Positions 7,466 through 28,340 of a stretch of 64,000 nucleotides of DNA are shown here, one piece after another. A program made the position numbers and the translations under genes. Under the pieces are notes generated by a model. That model was not told the DNA's origin, ran no database searches, and saw nothing but the letters and a program-made list of their open reading frames with translations. Numbering within the stretch: the first letter of the stretch is position 1; every line of letters starts with the position of its first letter. The stretch is from a virus. The stretch covers positions 28,083 through 92,082 of IMG/VR virus record IMGVR_UViG_3300028840_008180, one strand, 5' to 3'.

Positions 7466-8541
7466 TCAACTTGACTCTTTTCGCAAATGTTCTTCAAAGT
7501 TGCCAGTAACTTATCAAAGTCAAGTCCTTTTGGAACTCCCTTCTCTTTGATGTATTCTTCTAGCATTTCTTCTTGGCCGCACGCAACAATGCGTTGTACG
7601 TCCTCAATCTTGTGCCTCGTTTTTACATCCTCTTTTCCCTTGGGTGAAGAAAACTCGAATGTGAGGATGTTGTGACTCTCCATCAAATCCTTTTTGAGGT
7701 CAACAAGATTTGTTGCAGAGATATCCTTTGGTTCCAACTTGATGAACGTGTTATCAAGGTCAAACGTCTCAAGTTCACTCTCCTTGACGATGAGATGCTT
7801 TGGTGAAAAGTCGTTGATCACATAATCCGTCTCTAACGTTTCTGTGTCCAACAATACCAAGTGCTTCTCTTGGAAGGCTTCTGCGAAATTGATCTCTAGT
7901 GGAGACCCAACATATTCGATGTTGTCGATTCGTTGGGCAGCGTGGTAGTGACCGAGGAAAACTCGTCTCCACGGTCGGAACTTCTCCGCATCAACATTCA
8001 CCATGTCTCCCTCATATTCCACTGACACATCTGCGTGTGTTTTGTAGAACGTATTCAACTGGGCTCCGTGCAATGCAATGTGACCGCACAATACAGGAGA
8101 CTGGCTATATGCGAAATGCTCTAGTTCGTCGAGGGGATTCAACGTGAATGGTAGGAAGTCAATGTCCAGACCTTCAATGTTGATCGTTTCACATTTAGTG
8201 ATGATGTTAACGTTGGGGATCGATCCGAGAGGGATGATGCTACTGATGTCAAGCTTGTCAGCGAACCACATATCATGGTTGCCGATTAACATGTGAAGCT
8301 TGAGAGGGGACCCTTCTTCGCCAACATACTTTTTGATGATTTCGTACGTGCGTTGATAAGGTAAGACCTGAATCTTTTCACGGTCTTGAAAAAGGTCACC
8401 AAGAAAGATGATGTGATGCGCTTCTTTTTCGAGCGCAGTTTCAAAAACCCATTTCAGAGCATCGAGACAGTGCTGCAAACGTCTGAGACTGTCTTTGTGT
8501 GCGGCAACATGAATGTCACCTGTCAGTAAAACCTTTGCCAT
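7462..8541 (-). CDS. Mre11/SbcD-like nuclease (T4 gp47-like)
   Basis: DIH, GDLF, GNHD and GHYH metallophosphoesterase motifs; overlaps the gp46-like start. Confidence 0.92.
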   Translation of the reverse strand: MAKVLLTGDIHVAAHKDSLRRLQHCLDALKWVFETALEKEAHHIIFLGDLFQDREKIQVLPYQRTYEIIKKYVGEEGSPLKLHMLIGNHDMWFADKLDISSIIPLGSIPNVNIITKCETINIEGLDIDFLPFTLNPLDELEHFAYSQSPVLCGHIALHGAQLNTFYKTHADVSVEYEGDMVNVDAEKFRPWRRVFLGHYHAAQRIDNIEYVGSPLEINFAEAFQEKHLVLLDTETLETDYVINDFSPKHLIVKESELETFDLDNTFIKLEPKDISATNLVDLKKDLMESHNILTFEFSSPKGKEDVKTRHKIEDVQRIVACGQEEMLEEYIKEKGVPKGLDFDKLLATLKNICEKSQVE

Positions 8542-9080
8542 TAGAATCCTGGGCCAATACCTGGAGGTCCACCCATCCCAGGTCCTGCCGCAGGTCCGCC
8601 CATCGGGGCAGGTCCCATCGGTGCTCCACCCATCGGCGGTGCGCCGGGCGGTGTTGGCGGTGGTGCCATACCCGGCTGCTCTGCACCAGGGGCAGGAGCT
8701 TGGGGAGGAGGAGTTTCTCCACTATCTTTAGTATCGGCAATAGGCTCCCCAGACAATAGTTTTTCTAACAAAGACCAGACATCTTTTGCATTGAGTTCTT
8801 GCTGTGGTGCTGCGGCCTGTCCTGGGGCCCCAGGAGGCCCGCCTAAGCCCGGTCCACCAAGCGGAGGTCCACCTAGTCCGCCGCCGCCCATTGGCGGTGG
8901 AGGGCCTCCTAAGCCGCCTAATGGCCTTCCTCCAAGACCACCACCCATTGGTTTCGGTCCACCAAGTCCTCCCGGTGGTGCGCCAGGGGGTGGTAAAGGA
9001 GCGCCAGCACCAAGACCCCCCGGAGGAGGTCCGCCTAGCGGCTGTTCGTTGATCTGTTTTATGAACGCTTTGAATCGCAT
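8541..9080 (-). CDS. Gly/Pro-rich protein with capsid-targeting-like N-terminus
   Basis: Starts MRFKAFIKQINE, 4 nt after TATATA; low-complexity G/P body. Confidence 0.7.
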   Translation of the reverse strand: MRFKAFIKQINEQPLGGPPPGGLGAGAPLPPPGAPPGGLGGPKPMGGGLGGRPLGGLGGPPPPMGGGGLGGPPLGGPGLGGPPGAPGQAAAPQQELNAKDVWSLLEKLLSGEPIADTKDSGETPPPQAPAPGAEQPGMAPPPTPPGAPPMGGAPMGPAPMGGPAAGPGMGGPPGIGPGF

Positions 9081-9251
9081 GTCGTATATATGCAAAGAAT
9101 TTTCGATATTCGAGCGAACATTTTGGGTCCGAGGAGCGTCTATGATAGTACTCCGGTGTAAAAGTGCGACAACTGACGGTTGTCTTAACATCGAGAGGAA
9201 AAATACTTCCCGGCGTTCCAGTGGGATGTCGGGCCAAAAATGAGGAATACG

Positions 9252-9332
9252 ATGAGAACTCTATTGTCCAGTTTGTTTAGTCTCAGCCTGTTATCATCGC
9301 TCTATAGCGATGGAATTGGAGGGTCTGTCTAA
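9252..9332 (+). CDS. attenuator leader peptide MRTLLSSLFSLSLLSSLYSDGIGGSV
   Basis: GAGGA RBS at 9242-9246; codons 4-19 are exclusively Leu/Ser/Phe/Tyr; immediately upstream of an intrinsic terminator. Confidence 0.85.
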   Translation: MRTLLSSLFSLSLLSSLYSDGIGGSV

Positions 9333-9400
9333 GCAGTCTTGGACATACGGGGAACAAAAAACCCCTTCGGCCCTCTCAGGAGAGCCGAAGGGGTTTTTTT
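9265..9400 (+). promoter_or_regulatory. ribosome-dependent transcription attenuator (protector/antiterminator/terminator)
   Basis: 1:2 pairs TGTCCA/TGGACA, TGTTTAG/CTAAGCA and CATCGCT/AGCGATG; 2:3 pairs GGAGGGTC(9318-9325)/GGCCCTCT(9369-9376) and GGGG/CCCC; 3:4 terminator. Confidence 0.8.
9356..9400 (+). terminator. intrinsic terminator of the attenuator
   Basis: AAAAAACCCCTTCGGC...GCCGAAGGGG followed by T7. Confidence 0.92.
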
Positions 9401-9509
9401 ATTGGTGTGATATGAAGCCGAAAGCGACAAAACCGAAGCGAAAGCGAAAAAAGAAGTCGTTGGATCACAAAGAGGCTGCGGAGACAGCCGATTGGTCGGC
9501 AGACAAAAA

Positions 9510-9583
9510 GGTACGGTAGCTCAGTCCGGTAGAGCACTTGGTTGAAGCCCAGGGTGTCGTCGGTTCAATTCCGACCCGTGCCA
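9510..9583 (+). tRNA. tRNA-Phe(GAA)
   Basis: Cloverleaf GGTACGG/CCGTGCC; anticodon loop TTGAAGC; T-loop TTCAATT. Confidence 0.93.
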
Positions 9584-9661
9584 CTTGCGGGAATGCCCGA
9601 AGGGATTACATTTCCAGAAAAGATGGTGACAGTCTCTTCATTGTTTTGTCCCGCACAAGTT

Positions 9662-9674
9662 TGATCTTTGACAA
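9662..9674 (+). promoter_or_regulatory. rrn-type boxA antitermination element
   Basis: TGATCTTTGACAA matches the boxA consensus (G[A/C/T]TCTTT[G/A]A[C/A]A); lies between tRNA genes and is flanked by hairpins. Confidence 0.65.
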
Positions 9675-9733
9675 TTTGGTAAACTCAGTGATCTTCGTGC
9701 CAAATCCAGGGCGTGCGAAAGTGCGCCCTATTT

Positions 9734-9815
9734 GGGTCGGCATCCCATTGGTGAGGGAAGCAGTCTGTAAAACTGTGGTCTAACGACTTTGGTGGTTCAA
9801 TTCCACCCCGGCCCA
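9734..9815 (+). tRNA. tRNA-Tyr(GTA)
   Basis: GGGTCGG/CCGGCCC; loop CTGTAAA; long variable arm. Confidence 0.93.
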
Positions 9816-9821
9816 CTTAAG

Positions 9822-10187
9822 CTATGATTGATCGGCTTGCCACGGCATGCCGGTGTATTTGGCAAACTCCTCATCGGACATTTGGTCACCCAGCTTGGTC
9901 GGATTGTAGCCGAGGGACTTGAGACGCCACATTTCGGCCTCTACGTCTTCGGCACCATGACGGGCCATATCGTCCCAGTGAAGTGTTTTGAGTTCGGGAG
10001 ATTCGCTAGCGTTCATTACGTCGCCGCCGAAATCGTCTGCTGCGTTGTGAAGCTGGTACTCGGGTGGGGGAACATCACCAAGAGAGCGATTTGTTTGATC
10101 TACGGTGTTTATCTCACCGGTGTTATCATCCGGCTCCGAGTCGGACTGATTTTCCATTCGGTCGTGGTAACTTTGAAAACTGAACAT
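9822..10187 (-). CDS. acidic hypothetical protein
   Basis: ORF starting 5 nt after TATATA; MFSFQSY N-terminus. Confidence 0.65.
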   Translation of the reverse strand: MFSFQSYHDRMENQSDSEPDDNTGEINTVDQTNRSLGDVPPPEYQLHNAADDFGGDVMNASESPELKTLHWDDMARHGAEDVEAEMWRLKSLGYNPTKLGDQMSDEEFAKYTGMPWQADQS

Positions 10188-10222
10188 GGGGGTATATAGC
10201 TGCTAGCTCGATAAATAGATCG

Positions 10223-10822
10223 ATGCGATACAGCCAATTTGGACAAGATGAGTGGGTTCTGAAGACCATCCCTGATGGGAAGTACTTCGTGGATATCGGC
10301 GCAGGCGACGGCATTAGATTCAGCAACACGTTTGCCCTTGAGCGGGCCGGTTGGAAAGGTATCTGCGTCGAACCCCACTTGGCACAATACAGAAAGCTGC
10401 GGCAAAACAGGAGATGCCACCGGTGCCGCTACGCAGTAGCGGCACGAAGCAACACGATGGTGCCCTTTTGGGAAGGCTTGGGTGGCCTCAACGGACTGTC
10501 GGGAATAGTGGGATATTTTCAAGATGACCATCGGCGAAACCCATCAAAGGGCCGAATAGTAGCCAGGAAGACAATATCGCTGGTTGATCTTTTGAAGAAG
10601 TTCGGCGCACCTGAGGCAATCGACTATCTAAGCATCGACACAGAGAACTCTGAATACATGATCTTGAAGGCTTTCGATTTCTCATACACCTTCAAGAGTA
10701 TCACGATTGAGCACAACAACCTCGAAAAGAAGCGTGAGGCAACGAAGAGGTTGCTCGAATCTCACGGTTACAAACGAGTTGGTATACTTGAGGTCGACGA
10801 CCTATATCTTTACGATCACTAG
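10223..10822 (+). CDS. FkbM-family methyltransferase
   Basis: YSQFGQD, FVDIGAGDG, SNT, GWKGICVEP, IDYLSIDTE. Confidence 0.9.
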   Translation: MRYSQFGQDEWVLKTIPDGKYFVDIGAGDGIRFSNTFALERAGWKGICVEPHLAQYRKLRQNRRCHRCRYAVAARSNTMVPFWEGLGGLNGLSGIVGYFQDDHRRNPSKGRIVARKTISLVDLLKKFGAPEAIDYLSIDTENSEYMILKAFDFSYTFKSITIEHNNLEKKREATKRLLESHGYKRVGILEVDDLYLYDH

Positions 10823-10904
10823 GCCCTGTGGTGGAATGCTAGACACGGCTGGCTTAAACCCAGTTGCCCGTATGGGCGTGCAGGTTGGAATCCTGCCAGG
10901 GCTA
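10822..10904 (+). tRNA. tRNA-Leu(TAA)
   Basis: GGCCCTG/CAGGGCT; loop CTTAAAC; long variable arm; atypical T-loop TTGGAAT. Confidence 0.9.
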
Positions 10905-11035
10905 CTTGTTTTCACACGAAATCACTAACGAAAGGAGAAACACTCGGTTCCTGATGCTCTGGCGGCTGCGTAGGCCGAAAAGATCAGAGATTGGGCAGAC
11001 GGGCCGATTCACCCCCAACACTGTTGGAGGTTATC

Positions 11036-12205
11036 ATGAGCGAGAAAACTCATGTAAACGTCGGTACCATCGGTCACATCGACCATGGTAAAACAACTCT
11101 TACGGCTGCGATCTTGGCGGTCCAGGCAAGTAAGGGTCTAGCAATTAAGGTTCCCTATGGCAAGATTGCTACTGGCGGAATCGTCCGTGACGATCAGAAG
11201 GTTGTTACGGTAATCACGAGTCACGTTGAGTATGAGACAGAGGACAGGCATTACGCCCATATCGACTGTCCAGGCCACGCAGATTACGTCAAGAACATGA
11301 TCACGGGTGCGGCCCAGATGGACGGGGCAATTTTGCTCGTCTCTGCCGCAGATGGGCCGGAACCCCAGACTCGGGAACACGTTCTGTTGGCAAGACAGGT
11401 CGACGTTCCGAACATCGTTGTCTTCCTGAACAAGTGCGATCTTGTGGAGGACGAGGAATTGATCGAACTGGTCGAGTTGGAAGTCAGAGACCTGTTGACC
11501 GAGTACGGATTCGATGGCGACAATGCCACGGTTGTCCGAGGTAACGCCAAGGGCGCAATGGATGACCCAGAGAACCAGGGTGAGTGCATCACAGAGTTGA
11601 TGAACGCCTTGGGCAAGAACATCCCAGAGCCAATCCGGCAACTCGACAAGCCGTTTATGATGGCTATTGAAGGAGTCTACTCCATCGTTGGCCGAGGAAC
11701 GGTAGTCACTGGTAAGATCGAGCAGGGCAAAGTACAGCCCGGTGATAAGGTGGAGGTCGTAGGTCTGCAAGATAGATCAGAAACGGTCTGCACAAGCATC
11801 GAGCAGTTCAACAAGCAACTGCCTGAAGGGAAAGCTGGTCAGAATGTTGGATGCCTGCTTCGGGGTGTCAAGCATGACGAGGTCCAGCGAGGGCAAGTGC
11901 TGTCGGCTATCAACGCCATACAGCCCTACACTCGATTCAAGGCAGAGACCTATGTTCTGGGTAAGGAAGAGGGCGGAAGGCATACACCGTTCTTCGGTGG
12001 TTACAAGCCCCAGTTCTTCTTCCGAACAACAGACGTGACAGGCATAGTCAATCTGGTGGACGCCGAAATGGTGATGCCAGGAGACCATGTTACGGTAGAA
12101 GTTGAGCTAGATAAACCCGTTGCCCTTTACAAGGGGAACAGATTCGCTGTCCGTGAGGGCGGCAGGACGGTTGGCTCCGGTCGTGTGATCGAAGTCCTAG
12201 CGTGA
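11036..12205 (+). CDS. tuf: elongation factor Tu
   Basis: [53 protein letters not shown]; GGAGG RBS. Confidence 0.98.
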
Positions 12206-12238
12206 GATTACGAGCCTTAGCTTCGGCTAGGGCTCTAC

Positions 12239-12327
12239 GGAAGCGAGGCAAATAATGGTTCGTTGCGGCACTCTGCTAAAGTGTTCCGGGGTAACAGCCG
12301 GTGCTGGTTCAATTCCAGTCGCTTCCG
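12239..12327 (+). tRNA. tRNA-Ser(GCT)
   Basis: GGAAGCG/CGCTTCC, G73; loop CTGCTAA; long variable arm. Confidence 0.9.
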
Positions 12328-12331
12328 CTTT

Positions 12332-12413
12332 GGATAGGATGGTGGTTGGCTCACCAAACGGTCCCGAAAACTGTACCTCGTAAGAGGCCAGAGTTCGATT
12401 CTCTGCCTATCCG
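12332..12413 (+). tRNA. tRNA-Ser(CGA), atypical (C33)
   Basis: GGATAGG/CCTATCC, G73; loop CCCGAAA; long variable arm. Confidence 0.75.
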
Positions 12414-12418
12414 CTTAC

Positions 12419-12502
12419 GGAAGTGATCCGGCTGGATGAGGAGCGAATTTTGAAAGTTCGTGGGTGTAAAAAGCCTTTAGGGTTCGAGTCCCTACGCTTC
12501 CG
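12419..12502 (+). tRNA. tRNA-Ser(TGA)
   Basis: GGAAGTG/CGCTTCC, G73; loop TTTGAAA. Confidence 0.88.
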
Positions 12503-12513
12503 CTTGGAGGAAA

Positions 12514-12687
12514 ATGGAACTAGAAGAACACAAAAAAATGCTAATCAAGAACGTTGAGTGTCTTAGAGACAAGTGGCACCGTGTCGATATGGGTCACAAC
12601 AAGATGATCGAAAACATCAAAAAAGCCCAAGCTCTCGAAGAGCTACAAGCTATCGAAACGATTTACAGTACTTGGTTAGATGCTTAG
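12514..12687 (+). CDS. 57-aa hypothetical protein, paralog of the next ORF
   Basis: Not in the ORF track. GGAGG RBS; MELEEHKKMLIKNVECLRDKWHRVDMGHNKMIENIK...WLDA. Confidence 0.75.
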   Translation: MELEEHKKMLIKNVECLRDKWHRVDMGHNKMIENIKKAQALEELQAIETIYSTWLDA

Positions 12688-12694
12688 GAGGAAC

Positions 12695-12868
12695 ATGACA
12701 TTTGAAGAGGATAAGAAGCCGCTGATCGATTTGATTACATGGTATCGAGACAAATGGCATAAGGGTGACTTCGGTCACACTGAAATGATCGAGAAGATCA
12801 AGGAAACCGACGATCCGAAATTACTGGAATTGTATTGGAAGATTACGGATGGTTGGTTAGATTACTAA
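12695..12868 (+). CDS. 57-aa hypothetical protein
   Basis: GGAGG RBS; shares RDKWH.GH..MIE.IK...WLD with the previous ORF. Confidence 0.75.
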   Translation: MTFEEDKKPLIDLITWYRDKWHKGDFGHTEMIEKIKETDDPKLLELYWKITDGWLDY

Positions 12869-12869
12869 T

Positions 12870-12955
12870 GGCCTCGTGCCGGAACAAGGTAGACGGACCA
12901 GACTGAGATTCTGGGGAGCGTTACGCTCGTGCAGGTTCGATTCCTGTCGAGGCCA
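12870..12955 (+). tRNA. tRNA-Leu(GAG)
   Basis: GGCCTCG/CGAGGCC; loop CTGAGAT; long variable arm. Confidence 0.92.
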
Positions 12956-12960
12956 CTTAT

Positions 12961-13040
12961 GGCGGTGTACGCAAAATGGTAAAGCGGCAGTACTCAAAAT
13001 GCTGTGATGTTGTTTGTCGGTTCGAGTCCGACCACCGCTA
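12961..13040 (+). tRNA. tRNA-Leu(CAA)
   Basis: GGCGGTG/CACCGCT; loop CTCAAAA. Confidence 0.88.
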
Positions 13041-13044
13041 CTTT

Positions 13045-13119
13045 GGCGAGGTAGCCCAATAGGTAGAAGGCGGTAGTTTCAAGAACTACAGGTTGCGGGT
13101 TCGACTCCCGCCCTCGCTA
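13045..13119 (+). tRNA. tRNA-Leu(CAA), short variable loop
   Basis: GGCGAGG/CCTCGCT; loop TTCAAGA; variable loop AGGTT. Confidence 0.85.
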
Positions 13120-13124
13120 CTCAC

Positions 13125-13199
13125 GCCGGGGTAGCCCAACTGGCAGAAGGCGCATGATTTAGGATCATGAGGTTGAGGGTTCGACTCCCTCCCCCGGTA
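13125..13199 (+). tRNA. tRNA-Leu(TAG), short variable loop
   Basis: GCCGGGG/CCCCGGT; loop TTTAGGA; variable loop AGGTT. Confidence 0.85.
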
Positions 13200-13204
13200 C
13201 TTAT

Positions 13205-13290
13205 GGCCTTGTGTCGGAATAGGTAGACGAGTGGCGCTCAGACCGCCATGGGTGTAATTGCCCGTGCAGGTTCGATTCCTGTCAAGGCCA
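13205..13290 (+). tRNA. tRNA-Leu(CAG)
   Basis: GGCCTTG/CAAGGCC; loop CTCAGAC; long variable arm. Confidence 0.92.
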
Positions 13291-13292
13291 CT

Positions 13293-13712
13293 TTATCGTT
13301 TGATAGGAATAGCCCACGGAGTTTCTGGGATTTCTTCAGCGGCAGCAAGAGCGTCTTCAACGGCTTGTCGCATGTCGGGGCCGATGCCCTTCATGACCCA
13401 TTCCTTTTTGCTTGGGTCAGCTTTGATTCGCTTGACGTACTCCGCTACTTTGTCTCGTTTGATAGGAATAGCCCACGGAGTTTCTGGGATTTCTTCAGCG
13501 GCAGCAAGAGCGTCTTCAACGGCTTGTCGCATGGCGGGGCCTAAGCCCTGCATGACCCATTCCTTTTTGCTTGGGTCAGCTTTGATTCGCTTGACGTACT
13601 CCGCTACTTTGTCTCGTGCTCCAGCAGCGATGCCCGCACCCATGTCTCCAAATGCTCCTTTGATATCCCCGTAGCTGCGAGTTTCTAACCATTCATTGAA
13701 TGAGCGTCTCAT
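13293..13712 (-). CDS. hypothetical protein with a 53-aa tandem duplication and capsid-targeting-like N-terminus
   Basis: MRRSFNEWLE start with GGAGG RBS and upstream TATATA. Confidence 0.75.
   Translation of the reverse strand: MRRSFNEWLETRSYGDIKGAFGDMGAGIAAGARDKVAEYVKRIKADPSKKEWVMQGLGPAMRQAVEDALAAAEEIPETPWAIPIKRDKVAEYVKRIKADPSKKEWVMKGIGPDMRQAVEDALAAAEEIPETPWAIPIKR
13296..13617. repeat. 159-bp near-perfect tandem duplication
   Basis: Copies start at 13296 and 13455. Confidence 0.95.
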
Positions 13713-13749
13713 TTCATACCTCCACGGTATATATGGCCTTGCGTCGGGA

Positions 13750-14319
13750 TTAGTAGTACCTGAAATCATTCGCATGCCTCTTGCGAATGATTTCTTTCAA
13801 CTGAGGTGTGAGAAGTTTTTTGAATATCGCTGATCGGGTTGTATTCTTTCTCCTAATCGCCTTAGGTGGTGGTAACCCAATACGTTTGAAGACCTGGGGG
13901 ATGGCATCTTCTATGTTCTCCAAACGTATGACAACATCAACAAGCGATCTCCCCTGCTTATCACATGTGAAAGCTTTGATGTCTACGAAGTGCTTGTAAC
14001 GCTTATTGCGAACATAGGTGTCGAAATCACACCGGGCGGACGCCATGTTTCGCTTTTTCTCAAAAGCGAAACATGACAGAATGCGGTCGAAGGGGTTTCG
14101 GATCGTTGTAAAGACGAAATAGTCGCCCCATCTCCGTCCGGTTTTCTCAATAAATTGCTTTACCTTGTAGGCAGCATCGTGCCGACCCACCGGTTTTGCC
14201 CGCAAACCCTGGTCGTAGACCCGACATTTATAGGCTCGAAAGTGCGAGTGCAGGCTGCTAGAGCCGCATTTCTGATTGGCCAGAAAGATGAACTTGTGAG
14301 TGTGAGATATAACGGTCAT
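13750..14319 (-). CDS. sulfotransferase family 2 protein
   Basis: KFIF..QKCGSSS (5'-PSB-like), TIRNPFDRILS (3'-PB), IRLEN, C-terminal D..F.Y. Confidence 0.8.
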   Translation of the reverse strand: MTVISHTHKFIFLANQKCGSSSLHSHFRAYKCRVYDQGLRAKPVGRHDAAYKVKQFIEKTGRRWGDYFVFTTIRNPFDRILSCFAFEKKRNMASARCDFDTYVRNKRYKHFVDIKAFTCDKQGRSLVDVVIRLENIEDAIPQVFKRIGLPPPKAIRRKNTTRSAIFKKLLTPQLKEIIRKRHANDFRYY

Positions 14320-14379
14320 ATCAGTATTTACCCCAGACGGCATATCCGTTAGGATATTAAGGGGTAAAAGGAGGATGGT

Positions 14380-14772
14380 ATGATCATCAAAGAAGTCGAA
14401 GTCGTCATCAATGTGGAATACGGAGGTTTCTCTCTTGATACAGAGATGGCCCTCTGGTTGATGGAGAACAAGGGGTGGACGAGCACAAACGTCGACAGTG
14501 GTGAGGATGAGACCGAGTTCGATTTGATATCACTCGGTGATATGTTCCTCCGCTCGAAGAAATACGACGAGGTCGGGTTCAGAATGAACCCCGACCTCGT
14601 CGAGTGCGTTAAAACCCTCCAAAAGAAACACGAAGGTACGAATTGGTCTGGTGTTGCATACAACGACATCCCAAAGGTCTTGCAATTAAATGTCGTTCAT
14701 GTAGAGGTTCACCTTACCGTCGAGCCTGTGTATGACGGCATTGAGAATATAGCATGTTGGTCCAAGATGTAG
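14380..14772 (+). CDS. hypothetical phage protein
   Basis: GGAGG RBS; VVINxxYGGFSL N-terminus. Confidence 0.75.
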   Translation: MIIKEVEVVINVEYGGFSLDTEMALWLMENKGWTSTNVDSGEDETEFDLISLGDMFLRSKKYDEVGFRMNPDLVECVKTLQKKHEGTNWSGVAYNDIPKVLQLNVVHVEVHLTVEPVYDGIENIACWSKM

Positions 14773-14855
14773 CCAGGATGACGGAATTGGTAGACGACAA
14801 TCGCTTAGAACGATTGGTCCGTAAGGGCGTGCGAGTTCGAGTCTCGCTCCTGGCA
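14772..14855 (+). tRNA. tRNA-Leu(TAG)
   Basis: GCCAGGA/TCCTGGC; loop CTTAGAA; long variable arm. Confidence 0.92.
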
Positions 14856-14859
14856 CTTA

Positions 14860-15000
14860 CTAGATAAACCCGAATACTCTGAGAAATACAAGGGTACTGA
14901 ATAAAGCTGCTGCGGCTGAACCAATGGTTCGGATTAGTTCCATTGTGTGGTTGTGCTTGTTCAACCACGTCTCGACTCGATTTCTACGATGGTCTGTCAT
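14860..15000 (-). CDS. 46-aa membrane peptide
   Basis: AGGAGG RBS; MTDHRRNRVETWLNKHNHTMELIRTIGSAAAALFSTLVFLRVFGFI. Confidence 0.65.
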   Translation of the reverse strand: MTDHRRNRVETWLNKHNHTMELIRTIGSAAAALFSTLVFLRVFGFI

Positions 15001-15064
15001 AAACACCTCCTACTAGTATTATACTGTCGTTGTTAATAAAACTTAAGGGTGCAAGGAGAGGGAA

Positions 15065-15487
15065 ATGTCAGTGAAGAAGATTACGGTAAAGAGATTGGAG
15101 TGGTCGGAACTGAAGGATAGTCAAAGACATCGAATCAGGAAAAAGGTCGCTCGCCACGCTTCTGAAGTACAGGCTAAGCACAACTACATGAAGCGACTGA
15201 AGCGATCCCGAACAACCAGTGATGCTCCCTATGTACTTCTTCCTAAGAGTGTGATCAAGCCGAAGAACGGCTTTTGGGTTGTCTGGCGGCGGTTAGGCAC
15301 CGAGGCTGTTGTCACTCGTCGGACATTGGTTCACAAGGTGACGTGGGAGTTATACGGCCCACGGGAGAATGGTGTCCGATTTGTTCTAAAGGCACCCTTT
15401 CCAGTGAATGTCACCTGTACTCAGGATAGGAAGGTTTGGGAGGATTTTGCCGCTTCGTTGTCGGTAGGTCATCGATTGGGAAACTAG
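15065..15487 (+). CDS. basic hypothetical protein
   Basis: ORF with RBS. Confidence 0.65.
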   Translation: MSVKKITVKRLEWSELKDSQRHRIRKKVARHASEVQAKHNYMKRLKRSRTTSDAPYVLLPKSVIKPKNGFWVVWRRLGTEAVVTRRTLVHKVTWELYGPRENGVRFVLKAPFPVNVTCTQDRKVWEDFAASLSVGHRLGN

Positions 15488-15498
15488 CGAATTTACGC

Positions 15499-15526
15499 TA
15501 AAGTCTCGTAAACTATCTGCCGATAC
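15499..15526 (+). promoter_or_regulatory. sigma28-like promoter
   Basis: TAAAGTCT...GCCGATAC with TAAA-N16-GCCGAT spacing. Confidence 0.8.
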
Positions 15527-15545
15527 AAGCGATAGGAGAAAAGTT

Positions 15546-15830
15546 ATGGGAATACCAGCTTACGGAGACGTACTGACTCGTAAAGTGACTTTGCCCAACA
15601 AGCAAGTCCTGAGTATCGGTGTTTTGACAGCCCATGTTGGGGTCGGCGCAGTGCCGGAATTGACGGTCTCACTTCAAGACGAAGGTGGAATTGCTACCGC
15701 TTCACTGAAGACCGCCCTCAATTCAACCAATGATCTTCGATACGTTGCCAACATGTTGAATCAGGTGGCAACACGTATCGATCAGGTCAACGAAGAGGCC
15801 AAGGACGATTACTACGAAGAAGATGAGTGA
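15546..15830 (+). CDS. hypothetical protein
   Basis: ORF with AGGAG RBS. Confidence 0.7.
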   Translation: MGIPAYGDVLTRKVTLPNKQVLSIGVLTAHVGVGAVPELTVSLQDEGGIATASLKTALNSTNDLRYVANMLNQVATRIDQVNEEAKDDYYEEDE

Positions 15831-16043
15831 TCCCAATAGCGACAATACTGACAGTACTTGCTATAGTACCACGTCTGTCGCTTACAAATTGGGCAAATAC
15901 GTGTCCTGTCAGCGATCCGTTTTGCACGTCGTCGTAGTAGTATCCGTTTAAGCCACCGGAGCATTGGGCATCTCAGCCTTCATTGCTATCTATAATCGGC
16001 ACAAGAAAGTGAAACGGAGTAGAAGAAAAACGTTAGGAAATAC

Positions 16044-16127
16044 GGAATCGAAGCGAATTGGCTAAGCAGCCTATCTCGAAAGTAGGTGCGGGTAACACCG
16101 TTGGGAGTTCGAGTCTCCCCGATTCCG
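16044..16127 (+). tRNA. tRNA-Ser(CGA)
   Basis: GGAATCG/CGATTCC, G73; loop CTCGAAA. Confidence 0.88.
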
Positions 16128-16175
16128 CTTAAAGGTTAAGGTGAGATTGGTAGGAAATTATCGGGAGAATGAAAA

Positions 16176-16316
16176 ATGGAATGGCTTGGTAATTGGATCG
16201 CCGCTTGGTTAGACATGATCTGTGGTTTCATCTCGGTGGTTACCTTGTGCATCTGGCGTCCGTGGTGGGATTTCCAGTTTCGTGCGTATTGGGCAAATAA
16301 AATACTCCGGAAGTGA
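16176..16316 (+). CDS. 46-aa Trp-rich hydrophobic peptide
   Basis: MEWLGNWIAAWLDMICGFISVVTLCIWRPWWDFQF...; overlaps the 5' end of the next tRNA. Confidence 0.45.
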   Translation: MEWLGNWIAAWLDMICGFISVVTLCIWRPWWDFQFRAYWANKILRK

Positions 16317-16388
16317 AGCGAATGGTTAGCAAGCCGGTTGGAAGCCGGTCGCCCTCACGGGTTGCAGGTTCGACTCCTGTCACTTCCG
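16309..16388 (+). tRNA. tRNA-Ser(GGA)
   Basis: GGAAGTG/CACTTCC, G73; loop TTGGAAG. Confidence 0.88.
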
Positions 16389-16400
16389 CTTATGATCTCC

Positions 16401-16793
16401 ATGAAAGGCAATTTGAAGTACAGTGATATCGCTGCGGGGCACCGCCCGCAAGCGGCGGTCTATCTCCCTAAAGAATTTGGAGACTACTACCGTGCGTTGG
16501 TACCTAAAGCGAAGGACATACAACCACAAACCTACCCTCCGCACGTTACCGTTGTGAGGACTGGGCTTGAGACGCCGCCAAACATGGAGCCGTGGGGAAA
16601 GTACGAAGGTGAAATCATTGAGTTTACCTACAACCCAGTGGTAGTGACAGACGGTATGTACTACTACTTGGATGTAGAATCGGAAAGGATCGCCGAAATC
16701 CGAAAGGAGTTAGGGCTTCCACGCTACCGTTTCGGCGATAACAAGAAGTACCACATTACGATTGGGAATGTCAAACATCATGCCACTTCCTAA
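16401..16793 (+). CDS. 2H phosphoesterase superfamily protein
   Basis: Two HxT motifs (PHVTV, YHITI) at typical spacing. Confidence 0.8.
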   Translation: MKGNLKYSDIAAGHRPQAAVYLPKEFGDYYRALVPKAKDIQPQTYPPHVTVVRTGLETPPNMEPWGKYEGEIIEFTYNPVVVTDGMYYYLDVESERIAEIRKELGLPRYRFGDNKKYHITIGNVKHHATS

Positions 16794-26921: not shown

Positions 26922-28340
26922 ATGGAGACTCTTCTTAAGATCGGGACAGTTTACTCCCGTTTACACACAAGCGACGATTGGTTGAAAGAAAAGTTCTGGC
27001 GTGCCTTCAGGAAACGTGAACTGAACTACTATCACAACCCTCTGTATAAAGCGAAGAAGTGGGATGGCTTTCGGGATTTCTTCACCAGAAAGGCCGGTCA
27101 ATTTCTAACAGGGCTTCTGCCTGAAGTTGTTTACAACCTCAGACGATGTAAAACGAATTATAAGGTAGTGGATACCCGCCAGCCAATCGACTTCCTGCGG
27201 AAGTCGATTGGCGAGGACTTCATCTGGTGCCGGGACCATGAGAAGCCGATCATTTTGCGTGACTATCAAGTAGACTACACCAACCAGATACTGAAGTACA
27301 AGCGGGGTCTTGTCTACGCTCCCACCTCATCGGGTAAGACCTATTGTATGATTAGTGCTTTGAAGTGCCTTCCCCCGAAGACACATGCGCTTGTTCTGGT
27401 GGATCGAAAAGAGCTTGTTTGGCAAAACTACGAGGAGATTAGGAAGTTTGGGTTTGATGATGTCGGTGTCTTCTACGGCGAAAAGAAGGACCCTAATTAC
27501 ATCACCGTATGCCTCATCAACAGCGCACCTAAACTAAGCAAGTATTACCCTGAGATTCGGGCGGTCATTGTTGATGAAATACACGACATGATTTCGGATC
27601 GGTGTATTGCTCTCTACAAGCAACTCCGCAGCGCTGATATCCGTATCGGGTTCTCTGCTACTCCGTTTCGCTCTGGTGGTAAAGATCATTGCCATAAAAT
27701 GAAGGTGAAGGGACATATGGGTGGCGTTTTGAAGACGGATGCGGTAGAAAGTGGCCGCTTGACTACTGCTGATCTTCAAGATCGAGGCGTCTTATCCTCA
27801 TCAGACTGCACGTTCTTCATGGTTGAAGAACCTCAGAGGCAGTATGACATCTATCAGGATGCTGTTACTTTCGGCATTGCCCAGAATGATTACCTTCACC
27901 ACAAAGTGGTGAAGTTGATGGAAACCCTTAAAGGTCGGACACTTCTGGTTGTCGAGCGGATCGAGCACGGCGAGAAGCTTAAGGAGATGATACCCGGATC
28001 ATTTTGGCTACATGGTAGTCAGAAGAAAGGGATTCGTCAGCAAACCGTGGAGGAACTGAAGTTCCATGAAGGCGATTTTGTTGGTATTGCTGTTGATAGT
28101 ATTGTCAATAAGGGTGTAAACGTCTTTATTCATAACCTCGTAAACTGTGCTGGGGGAAAAGCCGAGCATCTGGTGATTCAACGTATGGGTCGTGGCCTTC
28201 GCACGGCGGATGACAAAGAGGGCCTCAATTACTACGACTTCTTCTTCACAATCAACCCCTACCTCGAAAAGCACTCCGAAGAACGCATCAGAATCCTCAA
28301 AGCTGAGGGTCACAACGTGAAAATTGTCGACTCTCTCTAA
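26922..28340 (+). CDS. uvsW: UvsW-like SF2 helicase
   Basis: LRDYQ, PTSSGKT, DEIH, SAT, QRMGRGLR; sigma28-like promoter at 26887-26914. Confidence 0.88.
   Translation: METLLKIGTVYSRLHTSDDWLKEKFWRAFRKRELNYYHNPLYKAKKWDGFRDFFTRKAGQFLTGLLPEVVYNLRRCKTNYKVVDTRQPIDFLRKSIGEDFIWCRDHEKPIILRDYQVDYTNQILKYKRGLVYAPTSSGKTYCMISALKCLPPKTHALVLVDRKELVWQNYEEIRKFGFDDVGVFYGEKKDPNYITVCLINSAPKLSKYYPEIRAVIVDEIHDMISDRCIALYKQLRSADIRIGFSATPFRSGGKDHCHKMKVKGHMGGVLKTDAVESGRLTTADLQDRGVLSSSDCTFFMVEEPQRQYDIYQDAVTFGIAQNDYLHHKVVKLMETLKGRTLLVVERIEHGEKLKEMIPGSFWLHGSQKKGIRQQTVEELKFHEGDFVGIAVDSIVNKGVNVFIHNLVNCAGGKAEHLVIQRMGRGLRTADDKEGLNYYDFFFTINPYLEKHSEERIRILKAEGHNVKIVDSL

Follow-up and report, generated by a model that had tools for sequence, protein, structure and literature searches.

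Few surfaces in bacterial translation are as conserved as the pocket of elongation factor Tu (EF-Tu) that receives the amino acid of an aminoacyl-tRNA, a pocket that underlies the "thermodynamic compensation" by which all aminoacyl-tRNAs are bound equally well. Second factors of the EF-Tu type with an altered pocket or tRNA surface, such as SelB and the nematode mitochondrial EF-Tu1 and EF-Tu2, serve particular aminoacyl-tRNAs or atypical tRNAs. Huge phages (>200 kb) with many tRNAs can also encode EF-Tu; elongation factors G, Tu and Ts were listed in such genomes without analysis, and Al-Shayeb et al. (2020) proposed that phage elongation factors keep translation efficient (PMC7162821). In engineered EF-Tu, the six mutations of EF-Sep include D217G and F219Y (UniProt numbering), D217G is also present in EF-pY, and removal of acidic side chains improves the binding of bulky or negatively charged aminoacyl groups (PMC6386890). 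Here we analyze an EF-Tu gene that lies within a tRNA array at positions 11036..12205 (+) of a 64,000-nucleotide stretch of viral DNA, positions 28,083 to 92,082 of IMG/VR record IMGVR_UViG_3300028840_008180; this whole stretch is called the window.

Phage EF-Tu genes are already known as a category (PMC7162821), and what we add is the placement of the window gene in a defined clade, its donor lineage and the changes in its pocket. We think it probable, from the comparisons described below, that the gene encodes a working phage EF-Tu whose production would be coupled to that of the phage tRNAs, which would rely on host EF-Ts for recycling, and whose pocket has been re-tuned to a spectrum of aminoacyl-tRNAs different from that of host EF-Tu.

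The window encodes a complete EF-Tu

The open reading frame (ORF) encodes 389 amino acids plus a stop, without internal stops, and a Shine-Dalgarno sequence GGAGG (11026-11030, +) is found 5 nt upstream of its ATG. ARAGORN placed it between tRNA-Leu(TAA) (10822-10905, +; 51.5 bits with Rfam), separated from the start codon by 130 nt, and tRNA-Ser(GCT) (12239-12328, +; below the Rfam gathering score), which starts 33 nt past the stop. The product matched the Pfam families GTP_EFTU (PF00009), D2 (PF03144) and D3 (PF03143), and scored 580.6 bits with TIGR00485, the equivalog model of bacterial EF-Tu, whose cut-off is 522.4. A sequence-only reading of the window had described a full-length, phage-borne EF-Tu between these two tRNAs, and the results agree with that description.

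The G domain comprises approximately residues 1-197, domain 2 residues 205-295 and domain 3 residues 296-389, and the protein aligned over its whole length with solved EF-Tu structures. An AlphaFold2 model built with 43 relatives as input had a mean pLDDT of 86 and a pTM of 0.83, with confidence dropping only at the mobile switch I and switch II regions; it superposed with a TM score of 0.94 both on the GTP form of EF-Tu (1EXM) and on the ternary complex with Phe-tRNA (1TTT). The G1 P-loop, the switch I Thr61, the switch II motif DCPGH with His84 and the G4 motif NKCD are all present in the window protein and in 99-100% of the phage clade defined below. The contacts to the tRNA body established by structural work (K89, N90 and R288; Q329, T338 and E378) are kept as well, as are H66, E215, T228, N273, helix D, Q114/E117/H118 and T382, the target of Doc. 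Across the phage clade, the GTPase, Mg-binding, tRNA 5'-end and T-stem contacts are 97-100% conserved.

Two motifs differ from the usual bacterial form. The switch I region (11156..11212, +; residues 41-59) is of the Planctomycetota type and keeps the Mg-binding Thr (E. coli T61, window T58), and the G5 loop (11540..11551, +; residues 169-172) reads G-N-A-K instead of the consensus G-S-A-L, with Ala174 retained. Both strings are present as the sequence-only reading had quoted them. They are not peculiarities of the phage protein. GNAK occurs in 84-86% of phage-clade proteins, and roughly half of the Planctomycetota-type housekeeping rows (e.g. P0029 and the Fuerstiella protein P0077) share it, so that it is compatible with function in those proteins; the two motifs are inherited housekeeping traits that record ancestry only.

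The amino acid pocket and the N-terminal arm are altered throughout the phage clade

We compared alignment columns, in E. coli mature numbering, among 74 rows of the phage clade, 80 rows of Planctomycetota type and 107 other rows. Only nine columns separate the phage clade from Planctomycetota, and four of them, 216, 218, 257 and 272, are near-invariant in bacteria. Residue 216 is G in 91% of the phage clade (window G213), versus D in 100% of the Planctomycetota-type and 97% of the other rows. Residue 218 is H in 84% and Y in 11% of the clade (window Y215), versus F in 100% and 95%. The same pattern was seen at G257, which is S in 85% of the clade (window S254; G in 100% and 93% of the two other sets), and at D/E272, which is Q in 81% (window Q269; D in 96% and 91%). 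In the window, the pocket residues G213 and Y215 are encoded at 11672..11680 (+), and the residues S254 and Q269 at the rim of the pocket at 11795..11842 (+). Furthermore, the N-terminal arm of about nine residues, which contains K2, F5, R7 and P10, is gone in the window protein and in 95% of the phage clade; it persists in L004, L006 and P0093, which are basal members with an intermediate pocket.

Of the aminoacyl-pocket set H66, E215, D216, F218, T228 and N273, the window protein keeps four out of six. Residues 216 and 218 line the pocket for the esterified amino acid, and we take residues 257 and 272-273 to belong to the same domain 2 cleft, which holds A76 and binds the antibiotic GE2270A, an assignment that a literature check did not confirm. 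We also assume that G257S is a GE2270A-resistance mutation of E. coli EF-Tu, on which the literature check found nothing, and a literature search for this EF-Tu pocket variant found no paper on it. With these changes the pocket becomes larger and less acidic. Judged from the alignment, the remodelled aminoacyl pocket and the lost N-terminal arm are the truly clade-specific features of the phage EF-Tu.

These features bear on whether the gene is a plain dosage or back-up copy, which would supply more ordinary EF-Tu for the extra tRNAs or outlast host shut-off, with the pocket and N-terminal changes being without consequence. All catalytic and tRNA-body contacts are conserved, a complete viral relative has 56 tRNAs, and phage elongation factors have been proposed to maintain translation efficiency (PMC7162821), all of which would suit such a copy. 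Yet the changed positions, which hardly vary or do not vary at all among about 190 bacterial rows, have been fixed in the phage clade at a ratio of nonsynonymous to synonymous substitution (dN/dS) of 0.03-0.04 between close pairs, a value showing that the clade is under strong purifying selection. A like pocket also arose independently in another set of extra EF-Tu copies (see below), and mutating the same residues shifts the amino acid preference of E. coli EF-Tu (PMC6386890). We consider a plain copy unlikely. The sequence-only reading had offered a back-up or a specialised EF-Tu; the clade-specific pocket and the loss of the N-terminal arm favour the specialised one over the plain back-up.

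Pocket variants are widespread and have more than one origin

A metagenome scan with the motif IEG[V/I]HxIxGRGT gave at least 120 matching DNA stretches. All 80 loci retrieved (80/80) encode EF-Tu homologues, 47-73% identical to the window protein, and many of them lie in very dense tRNA arrays of up to 32 tRNAs per 6 kb. The pocket-variant loci form three groups: clade I, to which the window protein belongs, clade II, and group III, which consists of alphaproteobacterial chromosomal paralogues. Clade II, also a tRNA-array clade, has a long stem, short N-termini and a switch I of either the IAKGG type or the canonical type; one of its members is a viral genome of 427 kb that is complete and has terminal repeats. 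Group III proteins have a long N-terminus, a switch I of the form VAKASAAQG.RD, G216 and a changed residue 218 (H, R or Q), and both rows checked for residue 257 (L053 and L111) have S257. Members of group III are L111 (4549-5754; an isolate of Bradyrhizobium oropedii), L053 and the metagenome loci L179, L190, L227 and L248; L111 adjoins genes for TonB-dependent receptors and has no tRNAs nearby.

An approximately unbiased (AU) test rejected one origin for I, II and III (p 0.004), showing that this pocket solution has arisen two or more times, always in extra EF-Tu copies. FastTree, a quick IQ-TREE run and a careful IQ-TREE run gave different answers as to whether clades I and II have one origin or two, and a constraint that joined them in one clade outscored the quick free tree; because the trees disagree on their common origin, we dropped a convergence of the pocket between clades I and II. 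Within clade II, the canonical switch I (IDKAPEEKARGITIN; loci L181, L182, L207, L209, L219, L254 and L255) branches from inside the IAKGG-type sequences (loci L178, L183, L188 and L205), which suggests a reversal or a recombination of this loop.

The distribution of the variant is relevant to another explanation, that the phage EF-Tu is a defence- or inhibitor-proof replacement whose reshaped domain 2 pocket evades a thiopeptide, a host effector of abortive infection or an inhibitor that a phage makes against host EF-Tu, so that translation goes on. The clade-specific changes all fall in parts of domain 2 that contribute to the GE2270A site as well (structural matches include 2C77 and 1D8T). 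EF-Tu is moreover a target of Lit and of type IV Thoeris, both of which cleave it, and Avs7 co-opts it via domains II-III (PMC13581612). The sequence-only reading had pointed to Lit and Doc as toxins that target EF-Tu, but the region of the Lit site and the Doc target Thr382 are the same in the window protein as in Planctomycetota-type housekeeping EF-Tu, so that no escape from either is given. No inhibitor gene was identified, and the like-pocket alphaproteobacterial paralogues adjoin TonB-dependent receptor genes and ORFs without Pfam matches, with no recognisable antibiotic or defence cluster. We know of no such defence in Planctomycetota, and evasion of a defence or inhibitor seems to us an improbable reason for the altered pocket.

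The gene belongs to a lineage of large phages

The window comes from a 92-kb IMG/VR record with a CheckV completeness of 18% that IMG/VR labels "provirus". In the 28 kb upstream of the window there are genes for thymidylate synthase and for several virion parts: a tail sheath (phrog_23, E = 1.4e-76), a sheath stabiliser, a baseplate hub and a head-tail adaptor. Window genes that surround EF-Tu or lie downstream of it code for ribonucleotide reductase, SbcCD, helicases, primase, polymerase, DnaB, a gp32-like single-stranded DNA-binding protein and UvsX, and the replication genes downstream are T4-like. A protein identical to the window EF-Tu is recorded on a contig of 339,821 bp.

A scan of IMG/VR found EF-Tu proteins 65-68% identical to that of the window on viral contigs of 49-533 kb (L002-L011). 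In all ten of these relatives the EF-Tu gene is in a tRNA array, and in nine of the ten it is among tRNAs for Leu, Ser, Tyr and Phe. The tail sheath of the window phage is shared, at 58-66% identity, with five relative records, one of which is 532,729 bp long and complete according to CheckV. The complete 533-kb relative (G279, of which L005 is a stretch) has 56 tRNA genes with 44 distinct anticodon assignments, and its Leu, Ser, Tyr and Phe tRNAs are again clustered around the EF-Tu gene. Neither an EF-Ts gene (TIGR00116; PF00889 at E up to 1) nor a second translational GTPase was found in this complete genome.

Among the tRNAs of G279 (L298-L324), the anticodon is CTA in three and TCA in one (e.g. 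491736-491826), and one of the CTA tRNAs adjoins the EF-Tu gene in the array. The anticodons of these tRNAs hint at suppression of stop codons.

The protein database contains dozens of further relatives of 386-392 amino acids with 68-77% identity, one of them filed under a Planctomycetota metagenome-assembled genome (MAG), and the GenBank phage collection gave matches of at most 61% identity, mostly to unannotated or host-like records. Phage-type EF-Tu genes were also seen on chromosome-sized contigs, L240 (1,121,947 bp), P0097 (7.8 Mb) and P0109 (2.3 Mb); in L240, the EF-Tu gene has four tRNAs within 1.5 kb. These contigs may represent integrated megaphages or very large elements.

The "provirus" label, together with the fact that bacterial tuf genes normally adjoin tRNA genes, could mean that integration or mis-assembly has fused a bacterial chromosome segment, with the tuf gene and the tRNAs on it, to phage DNA. 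This origin is already contradicted by the data: phage structural genes upstream and replication genes downstream are on one record, ten other viral contigs, including the complete 533-kb one, have the same arrangement, the best bacterial protein is only 71% identical, and the 13 array tRNAs serve just four amino acids. Given the structural genes upstream, the replication genes in the window and the identical protein on the 339,821-bp contig, the label does not make the EF-Tu gene host DNA.

The context of the gene also speaks to a use outside translation, as a decoy, as a chaperone or scaffold when capsids are assembled, or as a subunit of some other phage machine. There are precedents, in that the T4 major capsid protein binds EF-Tu and the Q-beta replicase uses it, and the changed parts of the phage protein, the aminoacyl pocket and the N-terminal arm, both touch the aminoacyl-tRNA end. 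Such a use is hard to reconcile with the 97-100% conservation of GTPase, Mg-binding, tRNA 5'-end and T-stem contacts in the clade and with the location of the gene in a tRNA array in 10/10 viral relatives examined, and we regard it as very unlikely.

The phage EF-Tu is of Planctomycetota type

The closest named bacterial proteins are from Planctomycetota (Planctomycetaceae, Pirellulaceae and Fuerstiella), with 68-71% identity to the window EF-Tu, and no bacterial protein was more than 71% identical. The best identity was 69% in a phylum sample of 201 Planctomycetota genomes and at most 64% in 80 named genomes across many phyla; the latter are a broad sample drawn via the universal HADYVKNM motif, not the nearest genomes, and served as the outgroup set.

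Switch I occurs in three forms: the canonical IDxAPEExxRGITI, VAKASESxGRRD and IAKGGTVRDxxKTVTI. That of the window protein is the Planctomycetota form, I-A/T-K-G-G-T-V-R-D-x-x-K-T-V-T-I. This form was present in 24 of the 30 best-matching genomes of the 201-genome phylum sample, and outside the phylum in only 2 of about 77 named genomes (L040 and L043; one Bdellovibrionota MAG and one Verrucomicrobia MAG), confirming that it is typical of Planctomycetota, as the sequence-only reading had stated.

In a FastTree analysis of 261 rows, the short-form clade of 74 rows had a support of 100 and a long stem, and was nested among Planctomycetia. IQ-TREE under LG+C20 joined the phage clade with a chromosomal sister (support 95), with SH-aLRT 93 for nesting in Planctomycetota, and the careful IQ-TREE run under LG+G4 gave 100/98 for the clade plus sister and 95/94 for their union with six Planctomycetia rows. 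An AU test on a reduced row set under LG+G4 did not reject a phage clade outside the sampled Planctomycetota (p 0.11). Taken together, these data make a solid case, from sequence relationships, that the EF-Tu of the phage clade derives from a Planctomycetota-type EF-Tu, and the clade is likely nested within Planctomycetia.

The sequence-only reading had named phylogeny as the check on this ancestry, and the nearest bacterial homologues, being Planctomycetia, do not refute it. It had further held that switch I points to the host. The Planctomycetota-type ancestry stands, but the long stem and an identity of at most 71% to any bacterial protein indicate that the phage clade is old, and the signal points to an ancestral donor and is weaker evidence for the present host. 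That the present host is a planctomycete is what we infer from this ancestry. As a second host marker we tried a 740-amino-acid amidotransferase-like protein, which gave phage-like relatives only.

The sister of the phage clade is a chromosomal EF-Tu paralogue with a short N-terminus and an altered pocket (IENVF, TQVESF), found in 7 of 81 genomes of one Planctomycetota order and in one other genome (L156 9647-10828, -; L157; L159-L164). Its neighbours are ordinary bacterial genes (DUF1559, DapB, QueG and PGK) without tRNAs. The transfer that connects the clade and this paralogue may have gone from phage to bacterium or from bacterium to phage.

A leader ORF and a terminator precede the tRNA array

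A leader ORF of 26 codons (9252..9332, +), in which residues 4-18 are exclusively Leu, Ser, Phe or Tyr, lies upstream of the array. Just 3' of it is an intrinsic terminator, a hairpin followed by a T-run (9356..9400, +); the fold of 9330-9420 had a free energy of -38.7 kcal/mol with z = -5.1. Such a leader ORF was found upstream of the Leu/Ser/Tyr/Phe tRNA and EF-Tu array in every relative with that array type, namely L003-L011 and L035 (for example L003 4024-4107, L004 6908-6982, L005 581-664, L008 6292-6372, L009 2323-2403, L010 4634-4714 and L035 792-866), and in all relatives with the leader ORF a T-run is located 56-72 nt past its stop. In the 533-kb genome a leader-type ORF was found just once genome-wide, and in L004 and L008 nothing but tRNA genes was found from the leader to the EF-Tu gene. 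The leader ORF and terminator look like an attenuator that would sense decoding of exactly those codons that the array serves.

The EF-Tu gene has a leader of its own, of 130 nt (10906..11035, +), with a hairpin (11015-11027) whose 3' arm overlaps the GGAGG. An EF-Tu leader of about 125 nt is conserved in L002, L003, L005, L008, L009 and L035, with the common blocks CTCTGG, AAAAGA and GATTGGG, and the hairpin ahead of the ribosome-binding site shows compensatory changes among the relatives. A scan for promoters and terminators around the EF-Tu gene performed no better than on shuffled sequence. The sequence-only reading had proposed that EF-Tu is induced together with the tRNAs. The architecture, with all genes concerned on the same strand and a conserved leader ORF and terminator ahead of them, supports co-regulation of EF-Tu with the array tRNAs, and it is on this architecture that the proposal now rests.

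In the window, ARAGORN found 13 tRNA genes on one strand (9510-16389), for Leu, Ser, Tyr and Phe only; Rfam confirmed 9/13, including Leu(TAA), and did not confirm the two Ser genes adjoining EF-Tu. The array starts with tRNA-Phe(GAA) (9510-9584, +; Rfam 63.2 bits), followed by tRNA-Tyr(GTA) (9734-9816, +; 50.2 bits), and a gene for an FkbM-type methyltransferase (10223..10822, +; PF05050, E = 2.3e-15) lies inside it before tRNA-Leu(TAA). Past the EF-Tu gene and tRNA-Ser(GCT) come tRNA-Ser(CGA) (12332-12414, +), also below the Rfam gathering score, and five tRNA-Leu genes (12870..13291, +), and tRNA-Leu(TAG), tRNA-Ser(CGA) and tRNA-Ser(GGA) are at the end of the array (14772..16389, +).

Two of these five tRNA-Leu genes, 76 nt long (anticodons CAA, 13045-13120, and TAG, 13125-13200; +), have a 5-nt variable loop and the shape of class I tRNAs, and their Rfam tRNA scores (64 and 61.8 bits) are among the highest of the array. 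Ordinary long-arm Leu tRNAs with the same anticodons adjoin this pair, and the relatives L008 and L035 have a similar class-I-like kind. A sulfotransferase gene is embedded in the array (13750-14343, -), and an ORF that abuts or lies inside it (16338-16793, +) has a weak, sub-threshold match to a 2H phosphoesterase domain.

Discussion

We propose that an ancestor of a lineage of contractile-tailed megaphages acquired a tuf gene of Planctomycetota type, most likely from Planctomycetia, and that the lineage retained it under strong purifying selection within the Leu/Ser/Tyr/Phe part of its tRNA array. The gene would probably be transcribed with the array tRNAs, downstream of the leader ORF and terminator, so that output of EF-Tu and tRNAs would rise when decoding of Leu, Ser, Phe and Tyr codons slows. 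The phage EF-Tu would bind GTP and aminoacyl-tRNAs and deliver the latter to host ribosomes; as no EF-Ts is encoded by the lineage itself, its recycling would fall to host EF-Ts. Its changed pocket around the esterified amino acid and the tRNA 3' end would shift which aminoacyl groups, and hence which aminoacyl-tRNAs, are held tightly.

Several observations weigh against this explanation. Six substitutions are private to the window copy (I62V, M112E, D196G, L211M, I244V and P295I in E. coli numbering; window residues 62, 109, 193, 208, 241 and 292, codons 11219-11221, 11360-11362, 11612-11614, 11657-11659, 11756-11758 and 11909-11911) at positions conserved in 82-99% of all other rows, and the window EF-Tu could be somewhat impaired by them. 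In the 146-kb relative L035, the EF-Tu gene (8001-9172) is disrupted by three frameshifts, which represent either decay, the gene being dispensable in some lineages, or an assembly error. Within the array, ORFs were called on the opposite strand at 13293-14343 and, unconfirmed, at 9822-10187, and between the leader and the EF-Tu gene there is a weak terminator-like site (10129-10145); these make co-transcription from the leader less than certain. Finally, the expected effect of the pocket changes is an extrapolation from E. coli variants that were engineered and have other mutations besides.

A more specific version of the re-tuned EF-Tu is that it and the tRNAs of the phage make up a decoding channel that is in part private, with the factor accepting combinations of tRNA and amino acid that host EF-Tu binds poorly or rejects, its supply being set by a leader peptide that senses the speed of Leu/Ser/Phe/Tyr decoding. 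The tRNAs of such a channel would include the class-I-like Leu tRNAs and, in relatives, the tRNAs with stop-codon anticodons. We put this version forward tentatively, and think it rather doubtful.

In this family of EF-Tu, a large and natural one borne by viruses, D216 and F218 have been replaced, which are residues that synthetic biologists mutate for non-standard amino acids, and the same two positions are changed in an unrelated set of bacterial extra copies. If the substrate preference is indeed altered, it would show how megaphages tune decoding for their own tRNA sets, it would provide natural scaffolds for genetic-code expansion, and it would give a concrete function to phage translation-factor genes, so far merely listed. 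The Planctomycetota ancestry is a testable lead to the host of an uncultured marine and sediment megaphage lineage with genomes of up to 533 kb.

Compared with housekeeping EF-Tu (TufA/TufB; TIGR00485; 1EXM, 1TTT, 1OB2), the window protein shares the three domains, the GTPase motifs, the Mg-binding Thr, His84 and the tRNA contacts, but it has no N-terminal arm (K2, F5, R7, P10), D216, F218, G257 and D272 are replaced, and its gene is in a phage tRNA array and not in the str or tRNA-tuf-secE-nusG context. The EF-Tu of Planctomycetia (Fuerstiella, Pirellulaceae and Planctomycetaceae MAGs) has the same type of switch I and 68-71% identity and is the nearest bacterial branch in all trees; unlike the window protein, it has 397-398 amino acids, a full N-terminal arm and a canonical pocket (IEDVF, TG.EMF, AGDNVG). 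The short-N paralogues of Planctomycetia (L156-L164) resemble the phage clade in their short N-terminus and altered pocket, but lie in bacterial neighbourhoods without tRNA arrays. The Hyphomicrobiales paralogues (L053, L111) share G216 and S257 with the phage clade, but have a long N-terminus, the VAKASAAQG.RD switch I and an ordinary bacterial neighbourhood with no tRNA array. SelB and the nematode EF-Tu1 and EF-Tu2 differ in another way, in that the phage EF-Tu has no extra domains and its contacts to the tRNA body are unchanged.

Like the translation factors listed for huge phages (PMC7162821), the window EF-Tu is connected with a genome of >200 kb and with tRNAs; it differs from that listing in having a defined clade, a specific donor lineage and specific pocket changes, and in having no accompanying EF-Ts or EF-G. 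The engineered EF-Sep and EF-pY come closest in the pocket itself, as the window protein has exactly G and Y at UniProt positions 217 and 219 (E. coli mature 216 and 218). It nevertheless keeps H67, E216, T229 and N274, which are altered in the EF-Sep/EF-pY type of pocket (H67R, E216N/V, T229S, N274W), most members of the phage clade have His and not Tyr at 219, and G257S and D272Q are additional; no evidence links the phage EF-Tu to phosphoserine or phosphotyrosine.

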